A stretch of DNA of 64,000 nucleotides from Cyanidioschyzon merolae (GCA_000091205.1 AP006487.2), one strand, 5' to 3'. Counted from the first letter of the stretch, positions 2,432 to 62,893 are shown. Notes: generated by a model from the letters alone, not told the origin. Program-made: numbers and translations.

Positions 2432-3001
2432 AAGTCAACCTTTAACTTGCAACTGGAGTGGTTCCACAACACTGATTCAGCGCCGCTCGAGTTAACAGCT
2501 CGCGACAGTCGCTTGTCGTTGCGGCAACGTGCACTACGAACACGAGTGCTCGTCCTCACAGAGCGTCGTGAAATGGAATCGTTGCGATCCGCGCGGTACA
2601 GGCGTTGATCGCGCAGGATCGATGCGTCGAATCGAGCGGTACCTCCCGTGTCCGATACACATGGAATGCGGAACAGCTGGCTCTCTGTCGTGCGAATTCT
2701 CCCGGACTTCTTTTTTAGCTATAAAGCGTGGACACTCGGATTGCATTTATATTGGGTTACAGATTCATATTTGGTTTTGGGGCTCTTGGTCGGAGTGGGA
2801 GAGTGGTGTCTCTGCCGCCGGTGATCGTTGTGACACAGGAATCTGGATCATACGGGACACATCCTAACAAGGACTAGTGCAATAACCGATATCATTGGTC
2901 AAAGCACAGCTACATACTTACACTCATCTCTTTAAGAGCACGTGTAGTGTCATGGAATCAGGCATGCATCAATTCGCGATCTTTCTGTTTCAAGGAAACT
3001 C

Positions 3002-3685
3002 GTGAATCTCGCACACCGCGCCACTCGATGGAACAGGGAAACAGCTCGGGTTCGTCGCTTGACGACTTGTTCACGAGCTCATGCTGAAAGACCACTGAGA
3101 CCATCACATAACAAAACCGATTTCGTTCGAAAGCCGAATCCTGTTCTCTTTATTGCCATCGATGGCACTGCATTCGAGTGCAGCATGAAACCTGTAATGG
3201 GATATGCTCCCAGAGGTTCACGTCGCGCATCTGCCATGGAAAATGTTCTTGGATTCGGACTTGAGGCAGGGCAGGAATCCATTCCGGTGGAGAGTGTGTC
3301 ACTGCTTTGCATGAAGGGCGTGTATACGAATCGATATTTTCTCGACTAGTTCTGTAGCTTTGGCTCTCGTCTATATACCTGTTTCATCACGAACATCATC
3401 GCGTTCCACGAATCGTCATGTGCTCCCAAACCAGTAAAGAGCAGGGTGCTGATAGTCCTGCGCGCCCCAACATATTCCCCATGGTTGAACCCGAATCAGT
3501 ACGTGTTCGAGGCCGTGAAGAGCGACTTCACAGAGGCGAACACACATTTCGGTTACTCGGATCGTCCTCGACAAGAACTACTGCACGTCGCTTTTGGTGC
3601 TGCGACTGAGGCCGACGGCATTGGCAGCATTTGTCGACCGAGAATCGTTGAGGTTTGCGGATCTCGACTTGCCGAACATGCATAG
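3002..3685 (+). mobile_element. Degenerate Tc1/mariner-superfamily DDE transposase relic (copy a), frameshifted across three frames
   Basis: Frame 1 (3002-3349) 'LFIAIDGTAFECSMKPVMGYAPRGSRRAS' resembles Tc1 'IVWSDESKFNLFGSDGNSWVRRPVGSRYS' (first D region). A third frame (~3361-3440) 'CFITNIIAFHESS' resembles 'FVFQQDNDPKHTS' (second D). Frame 2 (3446-3685) 'LRAPTYSPWLNPNQYVFEAVK' resembles '[21 protein letters not shown]' (third motif, E replaced by Q). Nucleotide homology to copies at ~22.9 kb and ~62.2 kb extends upstream to ~2930. Confidence 0.55.
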
Positions 3686-4676
3686 AGAAAAGGGTGGCAT
3701 ATAGCATAAAGCATGCATACGTGCGGCTTGTTTATCACCGGGCGTACACAGCGAATGCAAACGAGCTGTGCCAGGGAAATTACAGAATAAGAGGAACAAC
3801 ATTATCTCCGAGCGTTCCGAAAAGAGGTGCGTGTCGCACTTGGAGAACGTCGCCCTACTCGGACGAAACGCCTGTTCGCACGACGCTAATCGATTGAGCA
3901 TCAGGTCGGAGACGAAGTATATTCTCGGACAACACGGAGTTTACGACGACCAGGGACGCTCACCGCTCCGCCGATTGCACGATGAATATCGGCATCGGAG
4001 AAGGCGGCCATCATTCCAGGTTCCGCCGATCACGTGCTGTATTTACCCGTCGGAGACACTGACCAATACGCATGTTCCGCTGTGCACCGAGCAATCGGTG
4101 AACGTCCTCCGTTGGGTCTCTAGCACCGGTTCGTAAGCACCACGAATATCGCACAGCTTCGTAACATACCTGGGCGTGGGCGCCATGTCAGGAGAACGAA
4201 AAACGCTTCAGGACTATCGAGTGCATCTATGCGCACACGCACACGCACCCACAGAGGCCTCCCCGGCTGTTTTTTGACCGACTGGCTGCTATCGTTCCAG
4301 TTTATCCAGGCACGCCTCAAGTATGAGAGGCTGCCCCATAAAAAATATCCCGTCAGCTGGTCGATTGTTGTTTTCAGCAGCGCACACCGTCTGATCTGGA
4401 TGGCGGCGTTGAACTCTCGGTTCGGGAACTCCTTGCATGCAGTGATGCTGGTGAAACTCATCAATGTAAGGATTCCTCGAACTCGTACACTCAGCGTCAT
4501 GAAAGTCTCGTCATCATCATCCTCTTCATCTTCTTCTTCATAGCACTTGCTCGTCTTCGCTCGATAATCGGAGAGAGGAGAATTTTCCGTTTTTCCCCGA
4601 CATCCGGCTGTGACTACGCTTCGAGTTCCCCGAATTCCATGTCCACACCTTTCCCCTGAATGTTTTATCTCTTCAA

Positions 4677-5855
4677 ATGAACGTACTTCAAACACATCTG
4701 CTACAAACCGTGAAAGCACATTTGATAACACGCTCACGTAAGTGGAACACTATTGAGGTAAACGAGGACGACACCGACTCCGGGTGGCGGCAACTTGATG
4801 CGTCGTGCAACCGGACGCACGCCCGGCATGGCGCCAAAACCTACAAACGCCACTGCCTATCTGGTGCGGCGCCTAGGCTTGTTGCCATGGTGGAGTCAGC
4901 GCCCCTGGGGCTGCTTGAGTCTACCGAGGAACTTGAAAACCGTCTGCTACAATCATATGTGTCCCTGATCAAAAATCTCACGCAGCAAAACGCTTCCTCC
5001 AATCCGGAGGACGCTCACGGCGGCAGTGAGAACCCCGCAGGGGCAGCTGCGGCACCAGGTGCGACAGCCGCCGCAGAAGCAGCGGTTGCCCGGCACGAAC
5101 ACCCTGGCGGCAACGAAACTGCAAAGGCAGATGCGCTAACAGATTCTGTCTTTTCGGACCTATGCTACGTACCAGAGGACTTTATGGTGCCGCCACACTG
5201 CATACCCGTGCGAGCTGACGTCCGGTTTGCTGACTGGGACCAGATCGCAGCAGCAGCAAACGGAAACTACGACGTTATTCTGATGGACCCTCCGTGGCAG
5301 CTCGCCACCGCAAACCCAACTAGAGGTGTGGCGCTCGGCTATAACCAACTGAGCGACGAGTCGATCCTGGCTATTCCCTTGGAAAAACTGCAGCGTTGCG
5401 GACTCCTCTTGATATGGGTAATCAACGCCAAGTACCGAGTGGCTTTACAGATGTTCGAACGCTGGGGCTATCGGCTCGTCGACGAAATCGTATGGGTGAA
5501 GCTGACGGTGAATCGGCGCTTGGCGAAAAATCACGGCTTTTATCTACAGCACGCGAAAGAGACGTGCCTGGTCGGTGTGAAAGGGAACGACCTTTCCGCA
5601 TTGAGCACTGCACCGGGCATGCCCCGACCAGATGTGATTCTCAGCGAACGTCGCGGACAGAGCCAGAAACCAGATGAGCTCTATGAATGGATCGAGGCGC
5701 TCGTGCCGAACGGCAAGTACATCGAGATATTCGCCCGGAAGAATAACCTGCGCAACTTTTGGGTCAGCATTGGGAATGAGGTCACTGGCGAGAGTTTCGA
5801 ACAGGCGCTACCGCCTGAACTTTGCAAGCAGCTGCGAGAAGAACTCTCGACGTAA
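4677..5855 (+). CDS. MT-A70 family N6-adenine methyltransferase (METTL4/MTA1-like; DPPW catalytic motif)
   Basis: 'VILMDPPWQL' catalytic motif and C-terminal 'QSQKPDELYEWIEALVPNGKYIEIFARKNNLRNFWVSIGNEV' typical of MT-A70. Ala-rich low-complexity N-terminus. No METTL3-type CCCH zinc fingers. Alternative start at Met71 (nt 4887). Stop TAA at 5853-5855. Confidence 0.8.
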   Translation: MNVLQTHLLQTVKAHLITRSRKWNTIEVNEDDTDSGWRQLDASCNRTHARHGAKTYKRHCLSGAAPRLVAMVESAPLGLLESTEELENRLLQSYVSLIKNLTQQNASSNPEDAHGGSENPAGAAAAPGATAAAEAAVARHEHPGGNETAKADALTDSVFSDLCYVPEDFMVPPHCIPVRADVRFADWDQIAAAANGNYDVILMDPPWQLATANPTRGVALGYNQLSDESILAIPLEKLQRCGLLLIWVINAKYRVALQMFERWGYRLVDEIVWVKLTVNRRLAKNHGFYLQHAKETCLVGVKGNDLSALSTAPGMPRPDVILSERRGQSQKPDELYEWIEALVPNGKYIEIFARKNNLRNFWVSIGNEVTGESFEQALPPELCKQLREELST

Positions 5856-6137: not shown

Positions 6138-6336
6138 GTACTGTACTGTACTGTGCTATACTGTACTGTACTGTACTGTGCTATACTGTACTGTACTGTA
6201 CTGTGCTATACTGTACTGTACTGTACTGTGCTATACTGTACTGTACTGTACTGTGCTATACTGTACTGTACTGTGCTATACTGTACTGTGCTATACTGTA
6301 CTGTGCTATACTGTACTGTACTGTACTGTACTGTAC
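6138..6336. repeat. Pentanucleotide microsatellite (ACTGT)n with periodic GCTAT variant units, ~200 bp
   Basis: Direct reading: 'tactgtactgtactgtgctatactg...' repeated. It generates three overlapping artefactual ORFs (5901-6503, 5975-6565, 6124-6495) translating to 'TVLYCTVLYCAILYC'. Confidence 0.9.
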
Positions 6337-17154: not shown

Positions 17155-19398
17155 CTACGGGCACGCATGTTGAATCACGACATCCGAGTACCGACGCTGA
17201 ACGAGTTCAGCTTCGGATCTGCTCTGAACGAGTATCCAGATTGAGCGTATCTCCCGTGTATGGAGACAGAGGCGCCAGGGCGTGTGATTTGCATCCGCAT
17301 CAGATGCTTGTCGCGAATCACGGGGCCAGAGCACTGGTGTGCGTCCGATGACAACGCCACGAGCGGCATCGAGCACGGTTACCACTGCTGAGGTTCGGGC
17401 TGCGTGCAATCGTCCGCGACGATGGCGGATCAGGACTTCATCTCGCAGTTGCCAGCTGCTGCAGAGACAAAGTTCCCCCTTTGAGACATCGTCCCGCGGG
17501 ATGTCCACTCGATATGCGCACTGCGCGGGGAGCGATACGGAGCTGAAGTTGGAGCTGGAGCTGGAGCCGGAGCCGCTGTTTGGCCTATGTTCGAGCAGAT
17601 CGAGGTCGCTTCTGCGCGCTGCAGCGCGACTCGTGTGGCGTTCCTGGATCTTGGCGATCGAGCAATTCGCGCCTGCGTTCAGCGCGACGACTTCCCGGAG
17701 AAATCCCCCCGTGAGCAGTGCTCCGAGTTCAACGCAGTACTTGCAACTATTCATGCTCACGGGCAATCGCAGATAGACGCCGGCAGTGACCCCAGGGTAC
17801 ACCAGGTCCGACGGGTCTATCTCTGGGAGACGGCTTGTCTGCAGTATGCCGAAAGCTTCGCGCCAAACATAGACACCGCTCTGGTTAATGGAAATCGTCT
17901 GGTGAACGGGAGCAAGCATGATATCCGGATCCCCGGTCCCAATGATTGACGTCTCAACTGTGACGAGGACACTCGATCCACCTAGGAAGTAGTGTGGTGC
18001 CAGAAGCGAGCCCCATGGAGCGATCGAGAGTTTCGGTTTGTCCTTCTCGAGCGCGAGCACGTCGCGAAGCAGGTTCACGGACCCGAAGCCCCCGGGATCG
18101 CGCTCCAAAAACGCAATCACATTCCTGAGACCAGCGTCCGGCGTTCGTCCATGAGCGGGCCTGTATGTCGTGAACGCATCCACAAGGTCTCGCGCGAACA
18201 GAATCCCATCGACGGACTGGTCGGTTTTACGCACGTGCGACCACGTCTGGTTCAGCGAGTACATCGATATTCGTTTTGCTGACGAGATGCAAAGATTCAG
18301 ATGCGCGCCAACGTAAATGACCCGCTCAATGCCTCGTCCTTCGAGGACAGCAACGAGCTCCACGAGATCGTCGGCAACGAGAACATCATTCTCGGGATCC
18401 ACGTCCAGGAGCGGGTGCAGGGCCGACCAACCGTACTGCTCCTCGCATCGTTCTTGCGGGTCCGCCGAGCACATGCAGCCGGCAGGCCGGGGTAGGACGC
18501 GAGTGCGTCTCGCCGCCTCGTACGCCATGTCCACGATGCTGGTGGTAGCACGTAGGGCGTCCAGCTTAGCTCTTGTCGTGTAGCGTCGGGCGTTATCCCG
18601 CATGCGCCGCTCTCCGGCATTGCCTCGTTGCTCTAGAAATGCGACGATGTCTGTGGGGGCATGGATGACCAGCATGCCACGTTTCCGCGCCTCTCGGAGA
18701 GCAAGATTCAACGGTGGAATAAGCAACCGCTCTATTCTGGATGCTGCGGTCTTGCACCAGTGGGTGTCCCACAGGTCGACTACAATCAATGCCATCCGAT
18801 CGTAGCGCTCCTGTACATAATGCTCTCGTGCGATAATGTTCGGGTTCGAGGCCACACCCCAGCCATCGTCTGCGAACCATGTCGCGTCCATTGCGGTTGC
18901 CATTGGGTCGCTCGCTGGGCCCGGCATCCCAGAGGCCAGTCTTGCAGTATCCACGAACGACTGTCGCAGCGCACGGCGGCGAACAGGAAATGTGGCTATG
19001 CGCCTTGGATAGAGCAGCGGCGCCTGCTCGTCATCCAGCAGCGCTGTGTGATGAGACAAGTCTTGCGACCAGTACGCAGCGTGGACGGCTTTCATCAGCC
19101 CCGCGGTACCTGATCTCGAAGCATCAACTGCATCCGCAAAGTCGTAAACGAATTGGTTGTGAGAATGACCGTTTCGTGATTGGGCAAGCGCTAAAACAAA
19201 CGCTGATGGCGGTTGAAGCGATCCTCGGTACCAGAGCGCAAACCGACGATTCAGGGCGAGTGAGCGCGCGACCAACGCCAGTCCAAGAACAAAGCAAACG
19301 ACAGCACATAGGAAACAAGCAAGCACCCGGAACTTGTTACGCAGGCTCGTACTTCGGACTCTAAAGGGGTTCACTGGCCTCCGTGCTGGTTCTTGCAT
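17155..19398 (-). CDS. Membrane protein with an isochorismatase-like (cysteine hydrolase) domain and a large C-terminal extension
   Basis: 'ALIVVDLWDTHWC...MLVIHAPTD...RVIYVGAHLNLCISSA' resembles the isochorismatase-family pattern (ALLVIDMQNDF...VIHT...VFVCG.ATNVCV). Signal-anchor 'VLACFLCAVVCFVLGLALVA'. The ORF is open to 19800, but those extra 134 codons run through a 100-bp tandem array. ATG at 19398 ('MQEPARR') verified. Confidence 0.5.
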   Translation of the reverse strand: MQEPARRPVNPFRVRSTSLRNKFRVLACFLCAVVCFVLGLALVARSLALNRRFALWYRGSLQPPSAFVLALAQSRNGHSHNQFVYDFADAVDASRSGTAGLMKAVHAAYWSQDLSHHTALLDDEQAPLLYPRRIATFPVRRRALRQSFVDTARLASGMPGPASDPMATAMDATWFADDGWGVASNPNIIAREHYVQERYDRMALIVVDLWDTHWCKTAASRIERLLIPPLNLALREARKRGMLVIHAPTDIVAFLEQRGNAGERRMRDNARRYTTRAKLDALRATTSIVDMAYEAARRTRVLPRPAGCMCSADPQERCEEQYGWSALHPLLDVDPENDVLVADDLVELVAVLEGRGIERVIYVGAHLNLCISSAKRISMYSLNQTWSHVRKTDQSVDGILFARDLVDAFTTYRPAHGRTPDAGLRNVIAFLERDPGGFGSVNLLRDVLALEKDKPKLSIAPWGSLLAPHYFLGGSSVLVTVETSIIGTGDPDIMLAPVHQTISINQSGVYVWREAFGILQTSRLPEIDPSDLVYPGVTAGVYLRLPVSMNSCKYCVELGALLTGGFLREVVALNAGANCSIAKIQERHTSRAAARRSDLDLLEHRPNSGSGSSSSSNFSSVSLPAQCAYRVDIPRDDVSKGELCLCSSWQLRDEVLIRHRRGRLHAARTSAVVTVLDAARGVVIGRTPVLWPRDSRQASDADANHTPWRLCLHTREIRSIWILVQSRSEAELVQRRYSDVVIQHACP

Positions 19399-19487
19399 AA
19401 GCCCAGAGGGCGTTTGCGCTTTTCGAAAGGCGAATCGAAGCCAAAATAGGCGGCGCGAGGATCGTGGCGGCGGCCGTTTCCTACCAG

Positions 19488-19790
19488 GTTCGAACCGCGC
19501 CCCTGTTTGTATACAAGGATATCGGAATACGAGGAAACGAGTACATGAAGCGAACCGGCGTGTACTTTCTGATGTTTGAGTCTCTTTCTTCGAACCGCGC
19601 CCCTGTTTGTATACAAGGATATCGAAATACGAGGAAACGAGTACATGAAGCGAACCGGGGTGTACTTTCTGATGTTTGAGTCTCTTTCTTCGAACCGCGC
19701 CCCTGTTTGTATACAAGGATATCGAAATACGAGGAAACGAGTACATGAAGCGAACCGGGGTGTACTTTCTGATGTTTGAGTCTCTTTCCA
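19488..19790. repeat. Tandem repeat, 100-bp unit x 3
   Basis: 'cgaaccgcgc' recurs at 19491, 19591 and 19691. Units are near-identical, with g/a and c/g variants. They produce phase-shifted artefactual ORFs (19464-19679, 19576-19779, 19371-19646). Confidence 0.9.
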
Positions 19791-20285
19791 TTTTTATCAA
19801 CAGTAGCCTTTTCGGGATTTTTCTTTGAATGCTTGCTTTTCCGCTCCGTTGTTTTCGGATTTTGAAAGCACTCGCCGGGTGCGTCCGGTGAGCTACGTTT
19901 TCATCAGTCCAAGAGTGTTGATAGCAGCGATCATGAGACAGTTTTCGACGACTCCAGCTGCTTCAGCGTATTGCATACGCAGGTGGTGGTTGCGATGTAC
20001 GCTTCGTCTGCCATTTTCGTTTGCTCTCTTGACAGCGTCAGAGCGCTTTTCTCAGCGGTGATAATTGACTATGCACGGGTCTTCTCATATGCCCATAACG
20101 TATAGTTCTCTGGGCGCCATCTGGTGCCTCGTGATGGCTTGCTTCATCGTCTGGTATATGCCTCTGGTGGCTGCCGAAAGTCTCCCTGGATGCCCTCCAC
20201 CGTTTCTGCGCTCAGTGCCGGACACAACGATCACGGGGATCATCTGGGCAATGCCCCAGCGAGTGCACTGTCCACAGCACGGGCA

Positions 20286-23396: not shown

Positions 23397-26300
23397 TGGA
23401 ACAGCGTGCGCCTGTGTGTGCTGCACAAGGAATATTCGTAGAGGTGTCGGCCAGAAGAAGCCTGTGATCATAGGATTCGGTATCGGGCGCTAAAACTGCG
23501 GATGCAATAGAGGCGAGCCCTCTGTATTCGCCAAGGGCATGTACCAGGGAGTTAAGCAAGCGTTCGCACACCACTGCGCGGCGCCTGGTGGTGGAGGTAT
23601 ACTAGAAATACGGGAACACGAGGTAACATCCAAGTGTCGCTGCTATTAAGAGCGTACAGAGGCGCTTGACGAACAAGTCATGTATGGCAAGCGAAGCATA
23701 GACCGAATGTATCATCTACGCGTGAGATGCGACCCCAACAGCTATTAGCTGTGAACGCAGAAATATACCCCTCCAGTCAACATCCTGCGTCTGATTCAAA
23801 CGGTACGGGATCGATAAGAGAGACTGGTGTATGTAAAGCCAAATCTACAAGGACACAAGACGAAGCTGTAGCCGAATACTCCGCAACGGCTGTTTTTCAT
23901 GATACGCGGGAGAAACCGAACCTTTAGCGGGTGCGGAAGCGTTAAGGGATCCGTCCTATTTTATTCCGGCGCGAGCGTATGGCTACGACCTGCACCGTCT
24001 CTCGTCCGCTACCAGTACCAGCGCGGGTGGCATTACTAATGGTATACAGAGCATGTAGCCGGATGCACCAAGACTGACGATTTATGGCATGCTTTGATGA
24101 ATACGCAAATGTTGTGACGAATGACACCAAAGCCCGCGGCTTGTGTCGACATGCGGCACGCTGCTACTTGCGTGGTGTGTGGAACCCCAGCTCCCAGCCT
24201 CAGCTCGAACCGCATCTGAAATGGAAGCTCCCAGAAACGCCCGAAGCTATGATGCATATGGCTCAGGAGTCGATGCCGGAATGCCGACCTACCTGGTGAA
24301 GAGATTCCACAGCCATCAGTGTGGCAGTGTTTCTCGGTAGCTGCTCGTACTGGTCGCGTGCAGGCACTGTGGCCCCCGCAAGCCCTGCATGCAAAGCGTA
24401 TAAGACCAAAGGGTTGGCTTCAACGTTACCTGTATGGATAAGAGGTGCGCTTTCTGAGTTTCCAGTACCCAGCGATCTTCCTGGATCGCGTGGCGACATG
24501 ACAGTCCCGCGTTTCGCTTGTGATGATCAGATGATCGGTTGAGTCGTGATGCACAGGACGTCGGAAAAACGCGTTGCGAAATGCTCGCCATCAGAGAAAA
24601 CTAGAATCTTCCGTGTTACAAAAGGCATGAAGCCGATCGATATGTCCTCGCTTCAAATTCCGGAAGTTTGGATACGAACGTCTGCTGTGCGTCTGCATTC
24701 GCCGGAATCGGGTGTTTAGCCTAAAGCGTTCCGGGAAATGCCATGGCAGCGAAGGACAGCTCGTCAAGAGCCTACGGAACGTTGAAGCCGCCATACAGCG
24801 AGGATGCTGCTCTTCAACCTGGTTAATAGGCAGCACTCGCGCATCCAGAAAATTTTGGTGAGCATGATAGATTTTACATCGTTAGTGACTGCCATTGGAG
24901 ACGCGTTGTCAGTCTGTTTCTCATTTTCCGCCAACGGAAATCACGTGAAACGCATCAGCAAGGATCGCAAACTGCTTCAGGGAACACAGAGCAAGTCTGC
25001 TTCTTGTTTGACGACAAGGCACGGCATGTACATCGCTTTCGCAAGTTTTTTCATACACATTTGATGACCCGGTATGTCGAAGAGATCACCAGCAAGCTGC
25101 ACATGGACAGGTACCAGCATCCTCTTTCATGGTTTGGCCGCTCTGAAAACGATACGGAGCCTAGAACATGCGAAAAACATGTACCCGTTGCAGTTTCCTA
25201 TCTCGTTCACGTCAATGCTCGGCGAATACAATTGCATGCAAAGGCGGCAACAACCATTTTCGGTGGCCTTGCGTGCGCCTCTTCCTGCGGATCCGCACCA
25301 GTACAGCCTTCACGTCGAGGCGAACAAGAGCACACGTATGGAGTATCGCAAAACCCTGAGACGAACGCACGTCTCTTCCCATGATGAAACCTTCACATTG
25401 CCGTGCGCCCCAGCTACGGATGTATACAGTATATGCAAGCATCATGAACACAGCCCGACACGCAAATGCTTGTCGTTTCGCACGTCCACCTTGCAGGGGC
25501 CGCAGAGCCGCGCGCAAACTCAACACCATGCCACGTACACCAAACGTGCTACGCTCTCGTGGCATCTGCTGTCTTCACATAGAACTGTATGACCAAAGCG
25601 GCTGCTGTTATCCTTCCTGTATGGACCTCGCCGTGAAATTCTCAGCACGCAAGCGCTTTGTCGGACTTGAGTGCTTCTCACGAGGCGTGAGGCTGCCAGA
25701 CTCCACGGCGACGCTCTCCGGAGGCGCACAGGCTCCTGCGTGCGTGCGTAGAAGCGGGACGATGCTTCCAGGTATGCACCTTCCACGGACCACGTCTGTC
25801 ATCTATAGTGCATATTCCAACACCCATACCGTATACTTTGGGGTAAAAGCGGTCGCGGAAAAAGTCCAGAGTCTCCAGAAGCGCCGCCCTGCGCGGAGGC
25901 GTCTCACTCGGCTGCGGAAAAACGCGCTGCAACCATGTCAGGTATGCTTGTCTTTCCACTCGATACAAGAGAAACTCACGTGCTTAGGGTAGAACAAAGT
26001 CTCACTGGAAGCATTTAAAGCCTTCAAAGAACGTTGAAGCACCAGTACGAACGTGCGTCTGGGGAAACACAAGTCTATTGTATCGCCTAAGGCGTCAGTC
26101 GCGCTACTGAAATGCGACAGCATTGCCGTTCAGCAGTAGCGGCTCGAGCAGTGACTAGCTCTCCTGTCTGCGACTGCGAAGCGCAGCCAAAGCCTCTTTC
26201 ACCTGGCGCTACCTGCGCGAATAGCTCAAGTTCCACTGCATCCAGTCTAGAACTCAGGTGTGCCTGGGAAAACTGGTTCAGAACGAGCACGGGCTTGGTA

Positions 26301-36545: not shown

Positions 36546-38614
36546 CGAGTCGGAGCGCGTAGCGAGCGGCTCGACTGCGCCTTGCCACTCGCTGTGCGAG
36601 AGGCGAGGCGTGTCCAGTGGGGGCGGCGGCGGCTGCGTCCACGTCGCTGTTCAGCCCAGAGGGTTTTCGGAGCACTGCCAGCGACCGGTGGTCGATTATC
36701 CCAGAGTACCCGTCTCTGATAACGAGTGACAGGCAGCCCTGGTGAAGATTTGAATGTTTATCTCTAAACAGAATTTTAGGTAGCGTTCAGCGTCTGGCGG
36801 AAAGGTGCAGAAGCAAGCGCACGATGCATCTCTTGAAGCGTGCCACACGTGTGAATACGTGAATTTCTCGTGTTTTAAAGCGGGAACTGTGCGGCTTGGA
36901 ATGCTTTTGCAGAAGGCCATGATCCACGAGCACCCTGATACCGCAATTTTTGAAGAAGATGAGATTTCGCGGGCCATAGCCCCGACGCAGAGGCGTTCTC
37001 TCATGGCGCTCTGGACCGCCTCTCGCTCCTGAATACGAGTACGCCAATAACTGTCGTCATTGAGATAGAAGCGCATCGAACGCTTGCAAGTATCAAGCCT
37101 GGAATTCCCGCAGCAGCTTTATTAGAATGATAGCGGGTACGCTTCTTGCGATCTTTTGCATGTGTGGTTTTCGTGTCGTGTTCGAGGACTACGAATATGC
37201 ACGTGTGTATGCGCGCGTATCATACGAGGGTGCATCCGCATCATGCTCGCCGCTTGTCTTCGCACCTCTGCTTCTATGTGCCTGCGATACGAATCTGCTT
37301 TAATGGTCACGTGCGAGTGCACACGAACGTGGTAGGCCTCAAAAGTCCCGCAACACCGGGAGGCGTGGCGATCTCCACATCAACTGCAACCAAGTCCAGC
37401 TGCGTTGCTGCGTGTATGCCGCGACTTTTCGCACGTGCCAAGTCATATGGTCATGGTTTGCGTCTCGTCAGTCGAGCTACCTTCGAAGCATGCCTTCCAA
37501 AAAGCGTTTCACCGCTGCACGGGGATATCATGCATCCGATGGACTCGGGCCAAGGCAGCCGTAGACCCGTGTCCGTGGCTTTCGTACCCAAAGGGAACAC
37601 TCGGGATGGCGTTCACGAAAAAAAATCGCGTCCAGTACAAGAGCTGGCTCTATTTTGGTTTGCGTCATGCGCATTCCCCAGTGATGCAGGGATGGCGAAT
37701 GTTTGCATCCACAGGAACGACACGTGTGACCCGCGGAACCGAACCGAAATGAGGCACGAGTCTGAATCGTTCTCATCGAGCTCGTCGCCAATGTGCATAC
37801 TGTTCTTGACAATATCGATTTCCTGACCCAGCAAGCGCGGAGCAGCAGGCCTCAACAGCGCTGCGCCAGTCCGAGGTCCGTGCATTTCGAACACGGACTC
37901 GCTCATCCGCTGAGCTGGCGGCACCGCCAGTTTTCTCGCATCGTGCGGCCGAGCTTTGATGTTTGCGGGGCATACCACGAACCCGAGCAGTACAGAACGA
38001 AAAAATTATTTTGATGTGCTCCTCTGAGCGACTCGGGTATCCGCAACTGGGCAAAACAAAAACGGATTCGAGATTCGATCCGAGGTATTTCAATCTCAGA
38101 ACGCTTCCAGTTTCTCGAATTCACACGAGAACGTCAACCTGCTCCTAGAGGTGCCGAGCACTACGTTTCTGCTCTACGTACGTAAAGGGATGGACGGTCA
38201 CTGGGCACCATGGCAAGACGCATACAGCTGTGTGCGCCGCCCTCGTCTCCTGACTCTATGAAGCCGCACTGGTTAAACAGATCCAACAATCTCGTAACTC
38301 GCAAACATCCACGACGAGTAAAGACGCATGTCAGATACCCGATGATAATGGGAGCATAGCAACGAACAGACCCTCGTCGGCATCGCCGCGTCCCGCGTGG
38401 TCAGGATACCATGTCGCCCGGTGTCGCAGAGAGCCAGCGCCTCTGCTACACGTAGAAGATGGAGCTTGCACACGGACATCGCTTATAACGATTGCCTGCG
38501 CTGAGGTGCACTCCAGTAGACACTACACTTCATCGAATTTCGAACTTATTGTCGCGAAATCCCAGGCAGGCGTCACGCAACGTCATCTGGCCTTGGGCCG
38601 GAGGCATGTGCGCC

Positions 38615-44711: not shown

Positions 44712-46115
44712 TTATGCTGCTTCACTGGGCTGACGCCGAGTCCAGGATCGTGAATTGAACTTTCTGATGACGCCGCGTTTGATGAGGTACGTCCCGTGAC
44801 TTTGAACCTGCTGACGAGTTTTGTTCGGTAGGAAACTTTTGATCCGGTTCCATTTGCAACCGAACGTTGCGTAGGCGCGTCTGAACATGCAGTCTTCTTC
44901 CTCAGACCAGACTGAGTGACGACGCATTTTGTGCTTGGGATCCACAGAAGTGCTCTTCTCTCGCGCTGCTGTTGTGCACTGGACGCTCTGTAATTCCCCA
45001 GGCAAGGCCCCAGAGGTTGCGACGTTCGATGCGTGCGAACCCGCGTAGCTTGCGATGTGCTTGAATGACACCGCGGCATGTGATATGCCATGACACGGGC
45101 GGCTGCGAGCCAAGGCACATGCGTCCGGAATCTCGACGCGCAAGCCCGCTTCTCGAATCGTTTGGCGTTCCGTTGCCTCTGGAATAGGGCGTCGCTCATG
45201 CGTTGCGGTGTCATTCGAGCTGGTCGTGTTTGCTGGATTAGAGATACCATAGAGTGCTGAGTCCCTGTTCCACTGTTCATTGTCCAGACGAGCAACCGAG
45301 TGCGCAACGCCTCTCGCGAAATCAGAATGTCCATCTGGCGTTCTCAAAGCGTGCTCCGCTACGCATTCAAAGATGTATTGTGACCTGGCCGTGCGTGTCT
45401 GTGGTCCCGGAGCCTTGTCCAGACCCGATTTTATTGAACTGGGCGACGAACTTTTTTCTGATTGCAGTGATTGAACGTCGAATGCTCTGTTTCGGACAGG
45501 CGTGGCTGGCTCGGCTTGCTGTGTCACATAAGCGGAATAGGTTGCACACCTGGGTGCTGCAGAGGCCTCGTGAGTTCGCGTCTGCTGTCGTAGCGCACTG
45601 TAGCAGAAGGACGATTCAAGGGATTCGACGCGTTCACGTAGACTGCGAACTTCGCGAACAAGCGCTGCAACAGTTGATTCTGCTGCTGAGCCCGCGGGAA
45701 TTCGTGGATCGTACTGGTGTTGGAGGCCGCTGAGTTGCAGCAAACCATGACGCGACCCTTCGACGAACACCTCAGAATGCTGCGCTCCATATCTCGACTC
45801 AGGCGTCCCTGACGCGGCGAATCCGAATGGCAACGTCTCAGCGCACCTCGGGAGTCGCTCGGCACACGGCTCGAGATGCGGATGTACGGCATCTCCTGGT
45901 AGGTGTATCTCCATAAATCCTCTGGAATTGAGCGATGACATGCTTCCCGCAAGTGCTGACGCTTGTAAGCGCGAAAAAACTGGAATCTGCGAAGGCGTTT
46001 GCGCCTCTGGTTGATGCGGCTGGGTGAGCCAGATTGAGCCCGGCCCGCCTGCGGATCCCGCATAGGGTGCCCGGGCATAGACCAGACCCGGCTCCATTCT
46101 CATCGGTCGTTGCAC
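44712..46115 (-). CDS. Myb/SANT-domain (SHAQKYF-class-like) DNA-binding protein
   Basis: C-terminal 'RRHSVWSEEEDCMFRRAYATFGCKWNRIKSFLPNKTRQQVQSHGTYLIKRG'. The rest is low-complexity. Confidence 0.5.
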   Translation of the reverse strand: MQRPMRMEPGLVYARAPYAGSAGGPGSIWLTQPHQPEAQTPSQIPVFSRLQASALAGSMSSLNSRGFMEIHLPGDAVHPHLEPCAERLPRCAETLPFGFAASGTPESRYGAQHSEVFVEGSRHGLLQLSGLQHQYDPRIPAGSAAESTVAALVREVRSLRERVESLESSFCYSALRQQTRTHEASAAPRCATYSAYVTQQAEPATPVRNRAFDVQSLQSEKSSSPSSIKSGLDKAPGPQTRTARSQYIFECVAEHALRTPDGHSDFARGVAHSVARLDNEQWNRDSALYGISNPANTTSSNDTATHERRPIPEATERQTIREAGLRVEIPDACALARSRPCHGISHAAVSFKHIASYAGSHASNVATSGALPGELQSVQCTTAAREKSTSVDPKHKMRRHSVWSEEEDCMFRRAYATFGCKWNRIKSFLPNKTRQQVQSHGTYLIKRGVIRKFNSRSWTRRQPSEAA

Positions 46116-57828: not shown

Positions 57829-59880
57829 TTACGCATGGTCCCAGTTCGCCTCCGCGAGGGCGCGAGCTTTCTGCACCCGTTCTCGAAGGCGTCGCAGTCG
57901 TGGCAGATAACCGGAAGCATCTGGGCTGGTTAAAATTGTTGCTGTCGACGAGACCGCCTCCGACGGTTGTGACGGACCTGCTGTGGAAGCGCGACCCAGA
58001 CGCGAGCCTGCCTCTGACAGCGCTCCGTTCTCGGTCGCTGCCCTCGAGTCAGGTCCTGGTCTTGCGGCACCGAAACGCGTGAGGCGCTCGAGTCCCTGCT
58101 GCAGTTGCGGCGTCGGCGGGCTAGAGCGCCCTGTGCTAACCTTCCTCAGTGCGACCCGAGCGGGACGATTCGTCACCGAGCTGTTGTCGAGCCTGGAATC
58201 GGCCTCGTCGTGCTCGCTGCATACCACAGACAGACCCGCCTCAGGTGCAGCCTCAGGTGAGCGCGACAGTCTCCGAGACAGAATCCCCGGGCTACGATGC
58301 AGTCGCGGCGGTGAAGAGCCTGCTGGCACCTCGGTATGCTCCGCTTTTGGCGCTGTGCTCTGTGCTGCGACGCTTGCCGCTGCTGGTGTATGCTGGACGC
58401 CCGTATTCGTGGTGGCACGTTTCGTTTTGTTGGTTGCATTTTCAGGGGCATGCAATTCCTTACTCCCTCCTGAGGCATCGCGCACATGTATCGGACGGTT
58501 TGTGTTGACAACGGCCTTGGTGCTGCTCGAGTCGGGCGACCGGGTGCGAGCAGATAGAGAGGGTGCCGGCCGGGTGCGTTGCAGTTGGCTGGCTTCCGTC
58601 TTTCGCCCACGGTGCGAGTCGAGCGCGCTTGTCAACGGCATTTGAGGCTTTGCGGAGTGCTGCTCTTTGGACTTTTCCTCCTTATCTCCATGTGCTGTAC
58701 GAATGGGCGCTTCTGCCTTCGCTTTGGTCGCTGGCGTGCGCAGTGGAGCAGCTTCGATGGTGCCTCCGGACGCTGCGCTCGTCAAGATCATCTCGCGTTT
58801 CACCGTATCCTCTACTTGTTCCAGTATCTGCGAACGCTGAGCCCGCAAATCCGATGATCCTGAATGAGATTCCCCGACCGCAGTCTGCACCATTTGCCGC
58901 CCGGCTTCATGCCGCTTTGCAGCGCTCCGCCCCGTGCTGAGTCGAGTCACAGGATCATTCGTATCGATACCCACAACAGTCGCTCTGGTCTGTGACGACG
59001 CCAGGCGACGACTTGGCGGCAGGGTGGCAGTTTCGCCACGCGCCGATGATACCCCGCTCCTTGGCATGCGAGGGCGCGACGAGCCGCGGGTAGACGAAAC
59101 GTGCTCCTGCGCTTGCACTGCGTCTCGCGTCGCTTTACTAGGTTTGGGCTCGGGGAGCAAGAAGCGCTCGCGCAACACGTTCTCGATTTCGAGCGCCTCT
59201 CGAAGCCACCGACGGACACGAAGAATCGACGCTTCTACTCGCTGCATTGTGTCCGTATCATCGTTAGGCTCGCCGATTTGCCATAGCTGCTCCTGTTCGA
59301 GCACTAAAGACCATTGTTGGCAACGAGAAATCGTCTCTTGCAGTTCTTCGCGCATGATCTGCAGCGCTTTCTCGATCCTGGTTTTGAGAGCACCATATGC
59401 TCCGTCTTCAGCCCCAGTACGAGGCAGGTCGGCTCGGTTTCCGTGAGGGTGCTCAGTAAGGGCTTGGTGTTGGAGCGGTGCCTTGTGAGGGGCTCCAAAA
59501 GAAGCACCTGCAGCACTGCTGCCAGGGCGCTGTGCTTGGGCTTCCCCAGAAGGCTGTTTTTGAAGCACTGTCGCTTGAATCGTACCAGGGCGACTATCCC
59601 CAGTCTGGACGCGTGTTTTAGGTTCCGCATGCTCGGGTTCCAGCGCGAATCGACCACTGTGAGGTACCGCAAACGCCTGAAATAGAGCGGGCGGTATTCG
59701 ATACACCGGTCCGCGTAGGATCGGCACTGGACGTCCCGAATTCGCCCCGAGGAAACTAGGAGACTTTCTGTCAGAGGGAGCCGCCTCTGTACTTAGTTTC
59801 CTCGTGTTTGACTCATCCCGAAGTCCATTCTCTTCATAAACGCTGAACCAAGCGTGAAAGGGGAGCACGCGGCAAGCCAT
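57829..59880 (-). CDS. Hypothetical Ser/Ala/Pro/Arg-rich coiled-coil protein
   Basis: 683-aa ORF. Highly low-complexity with heptad-like stretches. No catalytic motif. The many antisense ORFs of similar length mean it could be partly artefactual. Confidence 0.35.
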   Translation of the reverse strand: MACRVLPFHAWFSVYEENGLRDESNTRKLSTEAAPSDRKSPSFLGANSGRPVPILRGPVYRIPPALFQAFAVPHSGRFALEPEHAEPKTRVQTGDSRPGTIQATVLQKQPSGEAQAQRPGSSAAGASFGAPHKAPLQHQALTEHPHGNRADLPRTGAEDGAYGALKTRIEKALQIMREELQETISRCQQWSLVLEQEQLWQIGEPNDDTDTMQRVEASILRVRRWLREALEIENVLRERFLLPEPKPSKATRDAVQAQEHVSSTRGSSRPRMPRSGVSSARGETATLPPSRRLASSQTRATVVGIDTNDPVTRLSTGRSAAKRHEAGRQMVQTAVGESHSGSSDLRAQRSQILEQVEDTVKREMILTSAASGGTIEAAPLRTPATKAKAEAPIRTAHGDKEEKSKEQHSAKPQMPLTSALDSHRGRKTEASQLQRTRPAPSLSARTRSPDSSSTKAVVNTNRPIHVRDASGGSKELHAPENATNKTKRATTNTGVQHTPAAASVAAQSTAPKAEHTEVPAGSSPPRLHRSPGILSRRLSRSPEAAPEAGLSVVCSEHDEADSRLDNSSVTNRPARVALRKVSTGRSSPPTPQLQQGLERLTRFGAARPGPDSRAATENGALSEAGSRLGRASTAGPSQPSEAVSSTATILTSPDASGYLPRLRRLRERVQKARALAEANWDHA

Positions 59881-62236: not shown

Positions 62237-62893
62237 ATGCATGGAGCCAGCAACTCGTGCAAATTCGTTGACGATGCAAAAAATGGACGTCGAGCACTGA
62301 AGGCCTGTTCACAAGCTCATGTCGACAGTTCACAGAAAGTTCCACGTCCTATAATCGAATCCGGCCGAGAGACGAATACTCTTGTGTTTGTGCCCATCGG
62401 CGAAACCGCATTTCACAGCAGCATGATACGTCCCACGAGCTATACTCCTAAAGACCTCTGTCTTTATTGTCTGTATGGTAAAGGGTCTTGGACTCGGACT
62501 TGGGTTATCGAAGCGATCGCTTCCCGTGCAGCGTGCGTCGTCGGTTCGCACGAAGACAGCGTAGACGATTCGCAATTTCTCAACTTGATATCCAGCCTCA
62601 TTTCGCCTTCTCCTCCTTGTTTCATCATGGATAGCATCGCGTTCCATGAATCCTCTGTCGAGTGCGACGTCGGGCACTTGTGTGTACAGCGCACAGAGCG
62701 CTCGCCTATGGGAACGCTCAGAACACGATCGGGAGTCTACGGCAGGGCACTCAGTGCGGGTACAGTGAAGGGTAACAATTGGATCCATCAGTGTCCATCA
62801 AGAGCATATACTGAGCGATGCCGTGTGTCCTTACGCGGGACCAGGGGGCTCTTGAAGGAACAGGAGCTGTGGTGGACATATTCCAGCTGCTGA
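62237..62893 (+). mobile_element. Degenerate Tc1/mariner-like transposase relic (copy c)
   Basis: 'LVFVPIGETAFHSSMIRPTSYTPK' and 'CFIMDSIAFHESS' are homologous to copies a and b at nucleotide level. Homology starts near 62150. Confidence 0.5.

Follow-up and report, generated by a model that had tools for sequence, protein, structure and literature searches.

An AMT1/MTA1-clade MT-A70 methyltransferase from a red alga, Cyanidioschyzon merolae, a probable DNA N6-adenine methyltransferase

Does the MT-A70 gene in this 64-kb window, the whole stretch of Cyanidioschyzon merolae DNA that was analysed, encode an enzyme that methylates adenine in DNA or one that methylates mRNA? The window is nuclear DNA of a unicellular red alga, which explains its GC content of about 55% and its densely packed, intron-free ORFs. 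On its plus strand, 4677-5855 is a real and complete ORF of 392 codons plus stop, and the product showed 100% identity over its full length with an annotated protein of C. merolae 10D (XP_005535622.1 / BAM79336.1 / UniProt M1UPJ1) when a large protein collection was searched. The translation contains both strings that the initial annotation had quoted as a clear catalytic core ('DVILMDPPWQL...' and 'QSQKPDELYEWIEALVPNGKYIEIFARKNNLRNFWVSIGNEV'), and the MT-A70 profile PF05063 covers aa 198-368 with the whole of its 172 positions; at E=4.6e-36 and 124.8 bits, compared to a cutoff of 23.9, this match is far above chance. No second Pfam family besides MT-A70 was found in the 392-aa product, and a search of the six-frame translation with the family HMM recovered no further MT-A70 domain in the 64-kb window. 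We infer that the gene is locus CME116C on chromosome 5. Its classification as AMT1 is already known: the gene has carried an annotation ever since publication of the genome, was placed in MT-A70 trees by Iyer et al. 2016 (PMC4738411), and was scored as AMT1 in a supplementary table of 2025. In the public records the protein carries the names 'mRNA m(6)A methyltransferase' and 'N6-adenosine-specific RNA methylase IME4', and it has also been called 'CmMTA'.

To place the protein within the MT-A70 family, we compared sequence scores, structure and phylogeny. When the protein was searched against PDB sequences with phmmer, the Tetrahymena MTA1 chains (7F4L, 7F4R, 7YI8, 8XYL) scored best at about 245 bits (E ~6e-72), with about 60% identity over aa 169-369 of the C. 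merolae protein; human METTL3 (118 bits), METTL14 (44), the METTL4-like chain 7cv6_B (31.5) and MTA9 (25.6) all scored lower. A re-test with anchor sequences, consisting of TtMTA1 170-372 and the human METTL3 and METTL14 domains checked against PDB chains, gave 246.8 bits for MTA1, 112.8 for METTL3 and 43.7 for METTL14. Foldseek on the AlphaFold2 (AF2) model returned MTA1/AMT1 chains at ranks 1-12 (best E=1.5e-24), with METTL3 first appearing at rank 13. An exhaustive HMMER scan supplied 86 domain sequences for a neighbor-joining (NJ) bootstrap tree, in which METTL4 and AMT6/7 are unsampled. In this tree the protein joins the orthologues from Cyanidiales with 93% bootstrap, and together they lie in the group containing TtMTA1, apart from METTL3, METTL14 and the AMT2/5 cluster, the last recognised by its ZZ fingers. 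This is the phylogenetic placement that the initial annotation had called for, and it points away from METTL3 and METTL14 with weak deep supports. Because the deep nodes are weak (68% for the METTL3 split and less than 20% within the AMT1 group), the tree only corroborates the assignment, and we rely on the score gaps, the diagnostic residues described below and the published tree.

That published tree comes from the survey of MT-A70 genes across 231 eukaryotes by Romero Charria et al. (Nat Genet 2025, PMC12695648). Its supplementary table, which rests on IQ-TREE-based trees, scores C. merolae with AMT1=1 and AMT2/5=1, and with 0 for each of AMT6/7, METTL4, METTL3 and METTL14; among the leaf names read from the tree, two belong to C. 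merolae (CME116C and CMH026C). We regard ORF 4677-5855 as almost certainly an AMT1/MTA1-clade orthologue. The initial annotation had preferred a METTL4/MTA1-type enzyme over METTL3, and the MTA1 half of that claim stands (245 versus 118 bits, Foldseek, contact residues and tree), but the METTL4 half does not, at 31 bits and with METTL4 forming a separate clade. Likewise, of the protists, algae and oomycetes among which it had placed this type of enzyme, the organism is an alga, a red one, and neither an oomycete nor a protist. The METTL3/METTL14 pair that it had proposed to look for is reported absent from C. merolae, the survey scoring neither gene as present.

The catalytic domain spans aa 166-372 (5172..5792, plus strand), contains the PF05063 match, aligns to Tetrahymena MTA1 170-372, and is modelled with high confidence. 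In the AF2 model, the mean pLDDT of 69.6 is made up of values mostly above 90 in the MT-A70 domain and below 50 for aa 114-147. The DPPW motif at aa 204-207 is intact and fits the [DNSH]PP[YFW] pattern. As the initial annotation had stated, there are no CCCH zinc fingers: we found no CCCH pattern in the 392-aa protein, in which MT-A70 is the only Pfam family. Its description of the N-terminal 160 aa as Ala-rich low complexity is accurate for one part of that region. Alanine makes up 10% of aa 1-70, 20% of aa 71-160 and 36% of aa 110-145, and this last stretch, an unconserved Ala/Gly/Pro-rich disordered linker (5004..5111, plus strand), is the sole truly low-complexity part of the protein. The description does not suit aa 1-70 at 10% Ala, nor aa 77-107 (LGLLESTEELENRLLQSYVSLIKNLTQQNAS; 4905..4997, plus strand), which are predicted to form a helix (AF2 pLDDT ~77) that is kept in Cyanidiales. 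In Tetrahymena, an N-terminal helix of MTA1 docks p1/p2 (PMC12485025), and the modelled C. merolae helix is a candidate equivalent of it.

Codons 1-70 are unconserved. In Cyanidiococcus the 320-aa orthologue has its first residue at the position matching M71, in an open frame with no in-frame ATG farther upstream, and the 90% cluster to which the C. merolae protein belongs includes several gene calls of 322 aa with the M71 start. The ATG of M71 (4887..4889, plus strand), which yields a 322-aa product, is thus probably the conserved functional start. Neither GC3 and composition nor comparison of near-identical strains, which have too few differences, separates the M1 start from the M71 start.

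The cryo-EM study of MTA1c on hemimethylated DNA (PMC12485025) names the residues by which MTA1 grips the DNA and the flipped adenine, namely D209, P210, W212, L214, R221, V223, I225, Y227, I254, K280, T282, N284, K286, K289, H291, F293, Q296, R328, Q331, S332 and K334. With P211 of DPPW added to these contacts, 22 positions were compared, of which the C. merolae protein is identical at 20 and conservatively changed at the other two (I225L and K286R). By alignment, and with the roles taken from the MTA1c-DNA structure (PMC12485025), the equivalents are distributed over three elements, all on the plus strand, and I249: gate loop 1 at 5286..5342 (DPPW, being D204, P205, P206 and W207, followed by L209, R216, V218, L220 and Y222), strand beta4 with the substrate-binding (interface) loop at 5499..5549 (K275, T277, N279, R281, K284, H286, F288 and Q291), and gate loop 2 at 5649..5669 (R325, Q328, S329 and K331, within RRGQSQK). 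In the same alignment, a gap replaces R221 and V223 in human METTL3, which has T and H at the positions of H291 and F293. The Tetrahymena R221 and H291 wedge into the duplex, where H291 contacts the 6mA methyl group of the opposite strand (PMC12485025); C. merolae H286 is the counterpart of H291 in the alignment. The retained equivalents of R221 and H291 are the best argument at the level of sequence for a DNA substrate and for maintenance behaviour at ApT sites. The catalytic and DNA-contact residues are invariant in Cyanidiales and in 60 homologues, and this full conservation argues for selection on catalysis.

We propose that the C. merolae AMT1 (MTA1) orthologue is the SAM-dependent catalytic subunit of a eukaryotic DNA N6-adenine methyltransferase. 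On the model of the Tetrahymena enzyme, AMT1 would bind double-stranded DNA and flip the adenine to be methylated, within an ApT site, into the DPPW pocket, in which D204 would bond N6 and P205 and W207 would stack on the base. R216 of gate loop 1, together with H286 and F288 of the substrate-binding loop, would enter the duplex, where H286 would read the methyl group on the opposite strand. A preference for hemimethylated sites, as in Tetrahymena, would then allow symmetric 6mA to be copied after replication. AMT1 and an unlinked AMT2/5-type paralogue on chromosome 8 (MT-A70 plus ZZ) would together form a small adenine-methylation system, with the mRNA m6A writer absent; in Tetrahymena, AMT1 is the maintenance enzyme and AMT2 and AMT5 are the de novo enzymes (PMC12077518). 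As a whole, we consider this explanation of ORF 4677-5855 quite probable. That AMT1 deposits 6mA on C. merolae DNA in vivo, as its residues suggest, is in our judgement likely. The data show the identity of the protein, its family and clade, the conserved catalytic and DNA-contact residues and the existence of the paralogue; DNA rather than RNA as the substrate in C. merolae, ApT specificity, maintenance behaviour and activity without AMT6/7 are expectations. Activity in vivo is something that we infer, since AMT6/7 is reported absent and a search of the literature recovered no 6mA measurement in C. merolae, Galdieria, Cyanidiales or any red alga. The searchable literature likewise contained no experimental report on the locus tag CME116C, and no red algae are among the 18 species sequenced in PMC12695648.

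The main rival reading is an AMT1-type fold that has little or no activity in vivo, or depends on an unknown partner, leaving genomic 6mA scarce or absent. Tetrahymena AMT1 shows no activity unless AMT7/MTA9, p1 and p2 are present (PMC12485025), and these obligate ciliate partners appear to be missing from C. merolae (AMT6/7 is scored 0, possibly joined by p1/p2), for which no 6mA report was found in the searchable literature. We nevertheless judge such inactivity improbable, given the intact catalytic and DNA-contact residues, which do not vary in Cyanidiales and the 60 homologues, and the retained N-terminal helix, which, as predicted, could dock accessory proteins. Other lineages also carry 6mA without the ciliate partners. 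Prasinophytes that have AMT1 but no detectable AMT6/7 have 6mA near the starts of active genes, and Trichomonas, which is without AMT6/7, p1 and p2, has 6mA in a WATW/TAT rather than SATS context (PMC12695648). Activity of the C. merolae AMT1 is still likely because 6mA is present in Trichomonas without these partners and because the catalytic and DNA-contact residues are fully conserved. If AMT1 is active as a DNA methyltransferase, DNA 6mA would be a transcription-linked mark in C. merolae.

A writer of m6A on mRNA, or on other RNA, is what the database names and the 'CmMTA' label imply. Apart from the automated names ('mRNA m(6)A methyltransferase' and 'IME4'), this reading can draw on the protein's listing as an MTA homologue in a review of plant m6A (PMC6576107), where the two C. 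merolae genes are named 'CmMTA' and 'CmMTB', and on METTL3 as the second-best family at 118 bits. Human METTL3 does have the MT-A70 fold, DPPW and the SAM pocket in common with the C. merolae protein, at about 33% identity and a Foldseek E of about 1e-18. However, MTA1 scores twice as high as METTL3, and METTL3 has CCCH fingers, of which pattern search and Pfam found none in the C. merolae protein. The equivalents of R221, H291 and F293 are missing from METTL3, and the C. merolae protein has these DNA-intercalating MTA1 residues in place of the METTL3-specific loop residues. METTL3 also needs METTL14 and WTAP, and METTL14, FIP37/WTAP, VIR, HAKAI and YTH readers are absent from C. merolae in the published surveys; METTL14 is scored 0 in PMC12695648, and FIP37/WTAP, VIR, HAKAI and YTH proteins were not found in PMC6576107. 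We therefore reject a METTL3 identity on three counts (no CCCH, no METTL3-type loop residues, and no METTL14 or WTAP according to the literature) and consider an RNA writer very unlikely. The initial annotation had named clustering with METTL3 or METTL14, combined with a WTAP-like partner, as the mark of an ordinary mRNA m6A writer, and this does not apply here because the protein groups with MTA1 rather than METTL3/14 and because PMC6576107 reports no FIP37/WTAP-like partner. The RNA-function names of XP_005535622.1 are unsupported by the clade placement and were probably assigned from the family name alone; placement in the AMT1 clade thus flags a database error in a protein that carries the name of an mRNA m6A methyltransferase. 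A METTL4/DAMT-1-type enzyme, which would have the MT-A70 fold, DPPW and absence of zinc fingers in common with the protein, has a negligible chance of being correct, since its identity is ruled out by similarity (31.5 bits to 7cv6_B versus 245 to MTA1) and METTL4 is scored 0 for C. merolae in PMC12695648.

The DNA methyltransferase reading also involves the second MT-A70 gene of C. merolae, which we recovered with a profile of ZZ-bearing relatives. The encoded protein (P0398 = BAM79731.1 / XP_005536017.1) is 626 aa long, with an MT-A70 domain at aa 185-359 that includes DPPW and is accompanied by three ZZ fingers, and its MT-A70 domain is 35% identical to that of the CME116C product. The two genes are on separate records, of 528,682 bp for BAM79336.1 and 739,753 bp for P0398. 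The third letter of a C. merolae locus tag by convention denotes the chromosome, so that CME116C in the window would be on 5 and the ZZ gene CMH026C on 8, and from record lengths and domain content we take P0398 to be CMH026C on chromosome 8. The same architecture of MT-A70 (with DPPW) plus ZZ occurs in Cyanidiococcus (P0265) and Galdieria (P0296/P0306). AMT2 and AMT5, the de novo 6mA enzymes of Tetrahymena, belong to the same family and combine MT-A70 with ZZ, unlike the CME116C product, in which Pfam detected no ZZ fingers. An AMT2/5 identity was accordingly rejected for the latter, which also falls outside the ZZ-bearing cluster. Cheng et al. 2025 described the AMT2/5 clade as nearly exclusive to ciliates, along with Naegleria and Acanthamoeba, and because of this near ciliate-only description the red-algal members of AMT2/5 type have been under-noticed.

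One possibility, which we put forward tentatively and hold to be less probable than the activity of AMT1 itself, is that Cyanidiophyceae have a stripped-down 6mA system consisting of an AMT1-type enzyme and a catalytically intact AMT2-type ZZ enzyme, with neither the dead partner AMT6/7 nor RNA m6A machinery. In such a system, AMT1 would act as a homodimer, or be paired with the ZZ paralogue or with an unrecognised partner. If true, red algae would gain their first demonstrated epigenetic mark based on adenine methylation. C. merolae itself, a very small red alga with almost no introns, is genetically tractable, its genes being easy to target and its genome 16.5 Mb in size, and it offers a clean place for a test because it has no METTL3, METTL14 or METTL4 to confound RNA and DNA signals. 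Both the role of AMT1 without AMT6/7 and that of an AMT2-type ZZ enzyme outside ciliates are testable there.

The closest known system is Tetrahymena thermophila AMT1/MTA1, the catalytic subunit of the MTA1c/AMT1 complex (PDB 7F4L, 7YI8, 8XYL, 9U9E). The two proteins have in common an MT-A70 domain that is about 60% identical over some 200 residues, with DPPW and both gate loops, as well as the 20 of 22 identical contact residues (R221, H291 and F293 included), an N-terminal region disordered except for one helix, predicted here in the C. merolae protein, and the absence of zinc fingers. They differ in that an AMT6/7 (MTA9) partner is not reported in C. merolae, in their unrelated N-terminal sequences, and in that the C. 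merolae protein is known from sequence. Outside Cyanidiales, the nearest relatives are the green-algal AMT1 proteins of Chlamydomonas, Chlorella, Picochlorum, Ostreococcus and Micromonas, at about 47-65% identity and with equal architecture. Chlorella adds AMT6/7 and METTL4 (PMC12695648), whereas C. merolae has AMT1 and the ZZ protein of AMT2/5 type instead. Among other red algae, Chondrus, Pyropia and Gracilariopsis are scored zero in every MT-A70 column (PMC12695648). Horizontal transfer was considered for this patchy red-algal distribution; the green-algal nearest kin would fit a gene inherited vertically in Archaeplastida and later lost from other red algae, an account to which we attach low confidence. 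Among the distant homologues in a 50% representative library, some AMT1-like MT-A70 domains (P0191, P0251, P0260 and P0240) are fused to a retroelement integrase C-terminal domain and chromodomain, or to Myb. These fusions suggest that transposon-borne or DNA-targeted versions of the enzyme occur in eukaryotes.

The gene order DUF1826 - AMT1 - ABCD-type half-transporter - ATP11 is identical in Cyanidiococcus and another close relative, indicating that the AMT1 gene is an old and stably placed resident of this locus. Its neighbours in the window are housekeeping genes, including those for DUF1826, the ABCD-type ABC transporter, ATP11, a protein kinase, EF-1beta and an aminotransferase, among others. 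Near the AMT1 gene, where candidates for AMT6/7, p1 or p2 were sought, we found no methylation-related neighbours, and the 64-kb window has no second MT-A70 domain. The sole ORF in the window with a Myb domain (44712-46115, minus strand) was rejected as a p1/p2 candidate, as it matches ordinary Myb proteins and not the p1/p2 chains. Four long ORFs had no Pfam match at E<=0.001: 17155-19800 (minus strand, 881 aa), 57829-59880 (minus strand, 683 aa), 25381-25992 (plus strand, 203 aa) and 37146-37826 (plus strand, 226 aa).

The spacer between DUF1826 and AMT1 (2432-4676) is about 2.2 kb long here; that of a close relative measures only some 155 bp (L002 3846-4001). At about 3100-3690 on the plus strand, it contains a stop-interrupted frame with a Tc1/IS630-like 'YSPWLNPNQ' string and a weak DDE_3 match (E=0.0026, below the cutoff), which by its sequence looks like a decayed DNA-transposon insertion. 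Another ORF, at 62237-62893 (plus strand), has a DDE_3 transposase-like match at E=5e-6 and 26.9 bits, just under the cutoff of 28.6; it has no nucleotide similarity to the relic in the DUF1826-AMT1 spacer. Where the AMT1 and ABC-transporter genes converge, the interval between them at 6138-6336 is occupied by a 25-bp tandem repeat (GTACTGTACTGTACTGTGCTATACT) in 8 copies with 91% match, which gives rise to long spurious 'TVLYC' ORFs on the plus strand.
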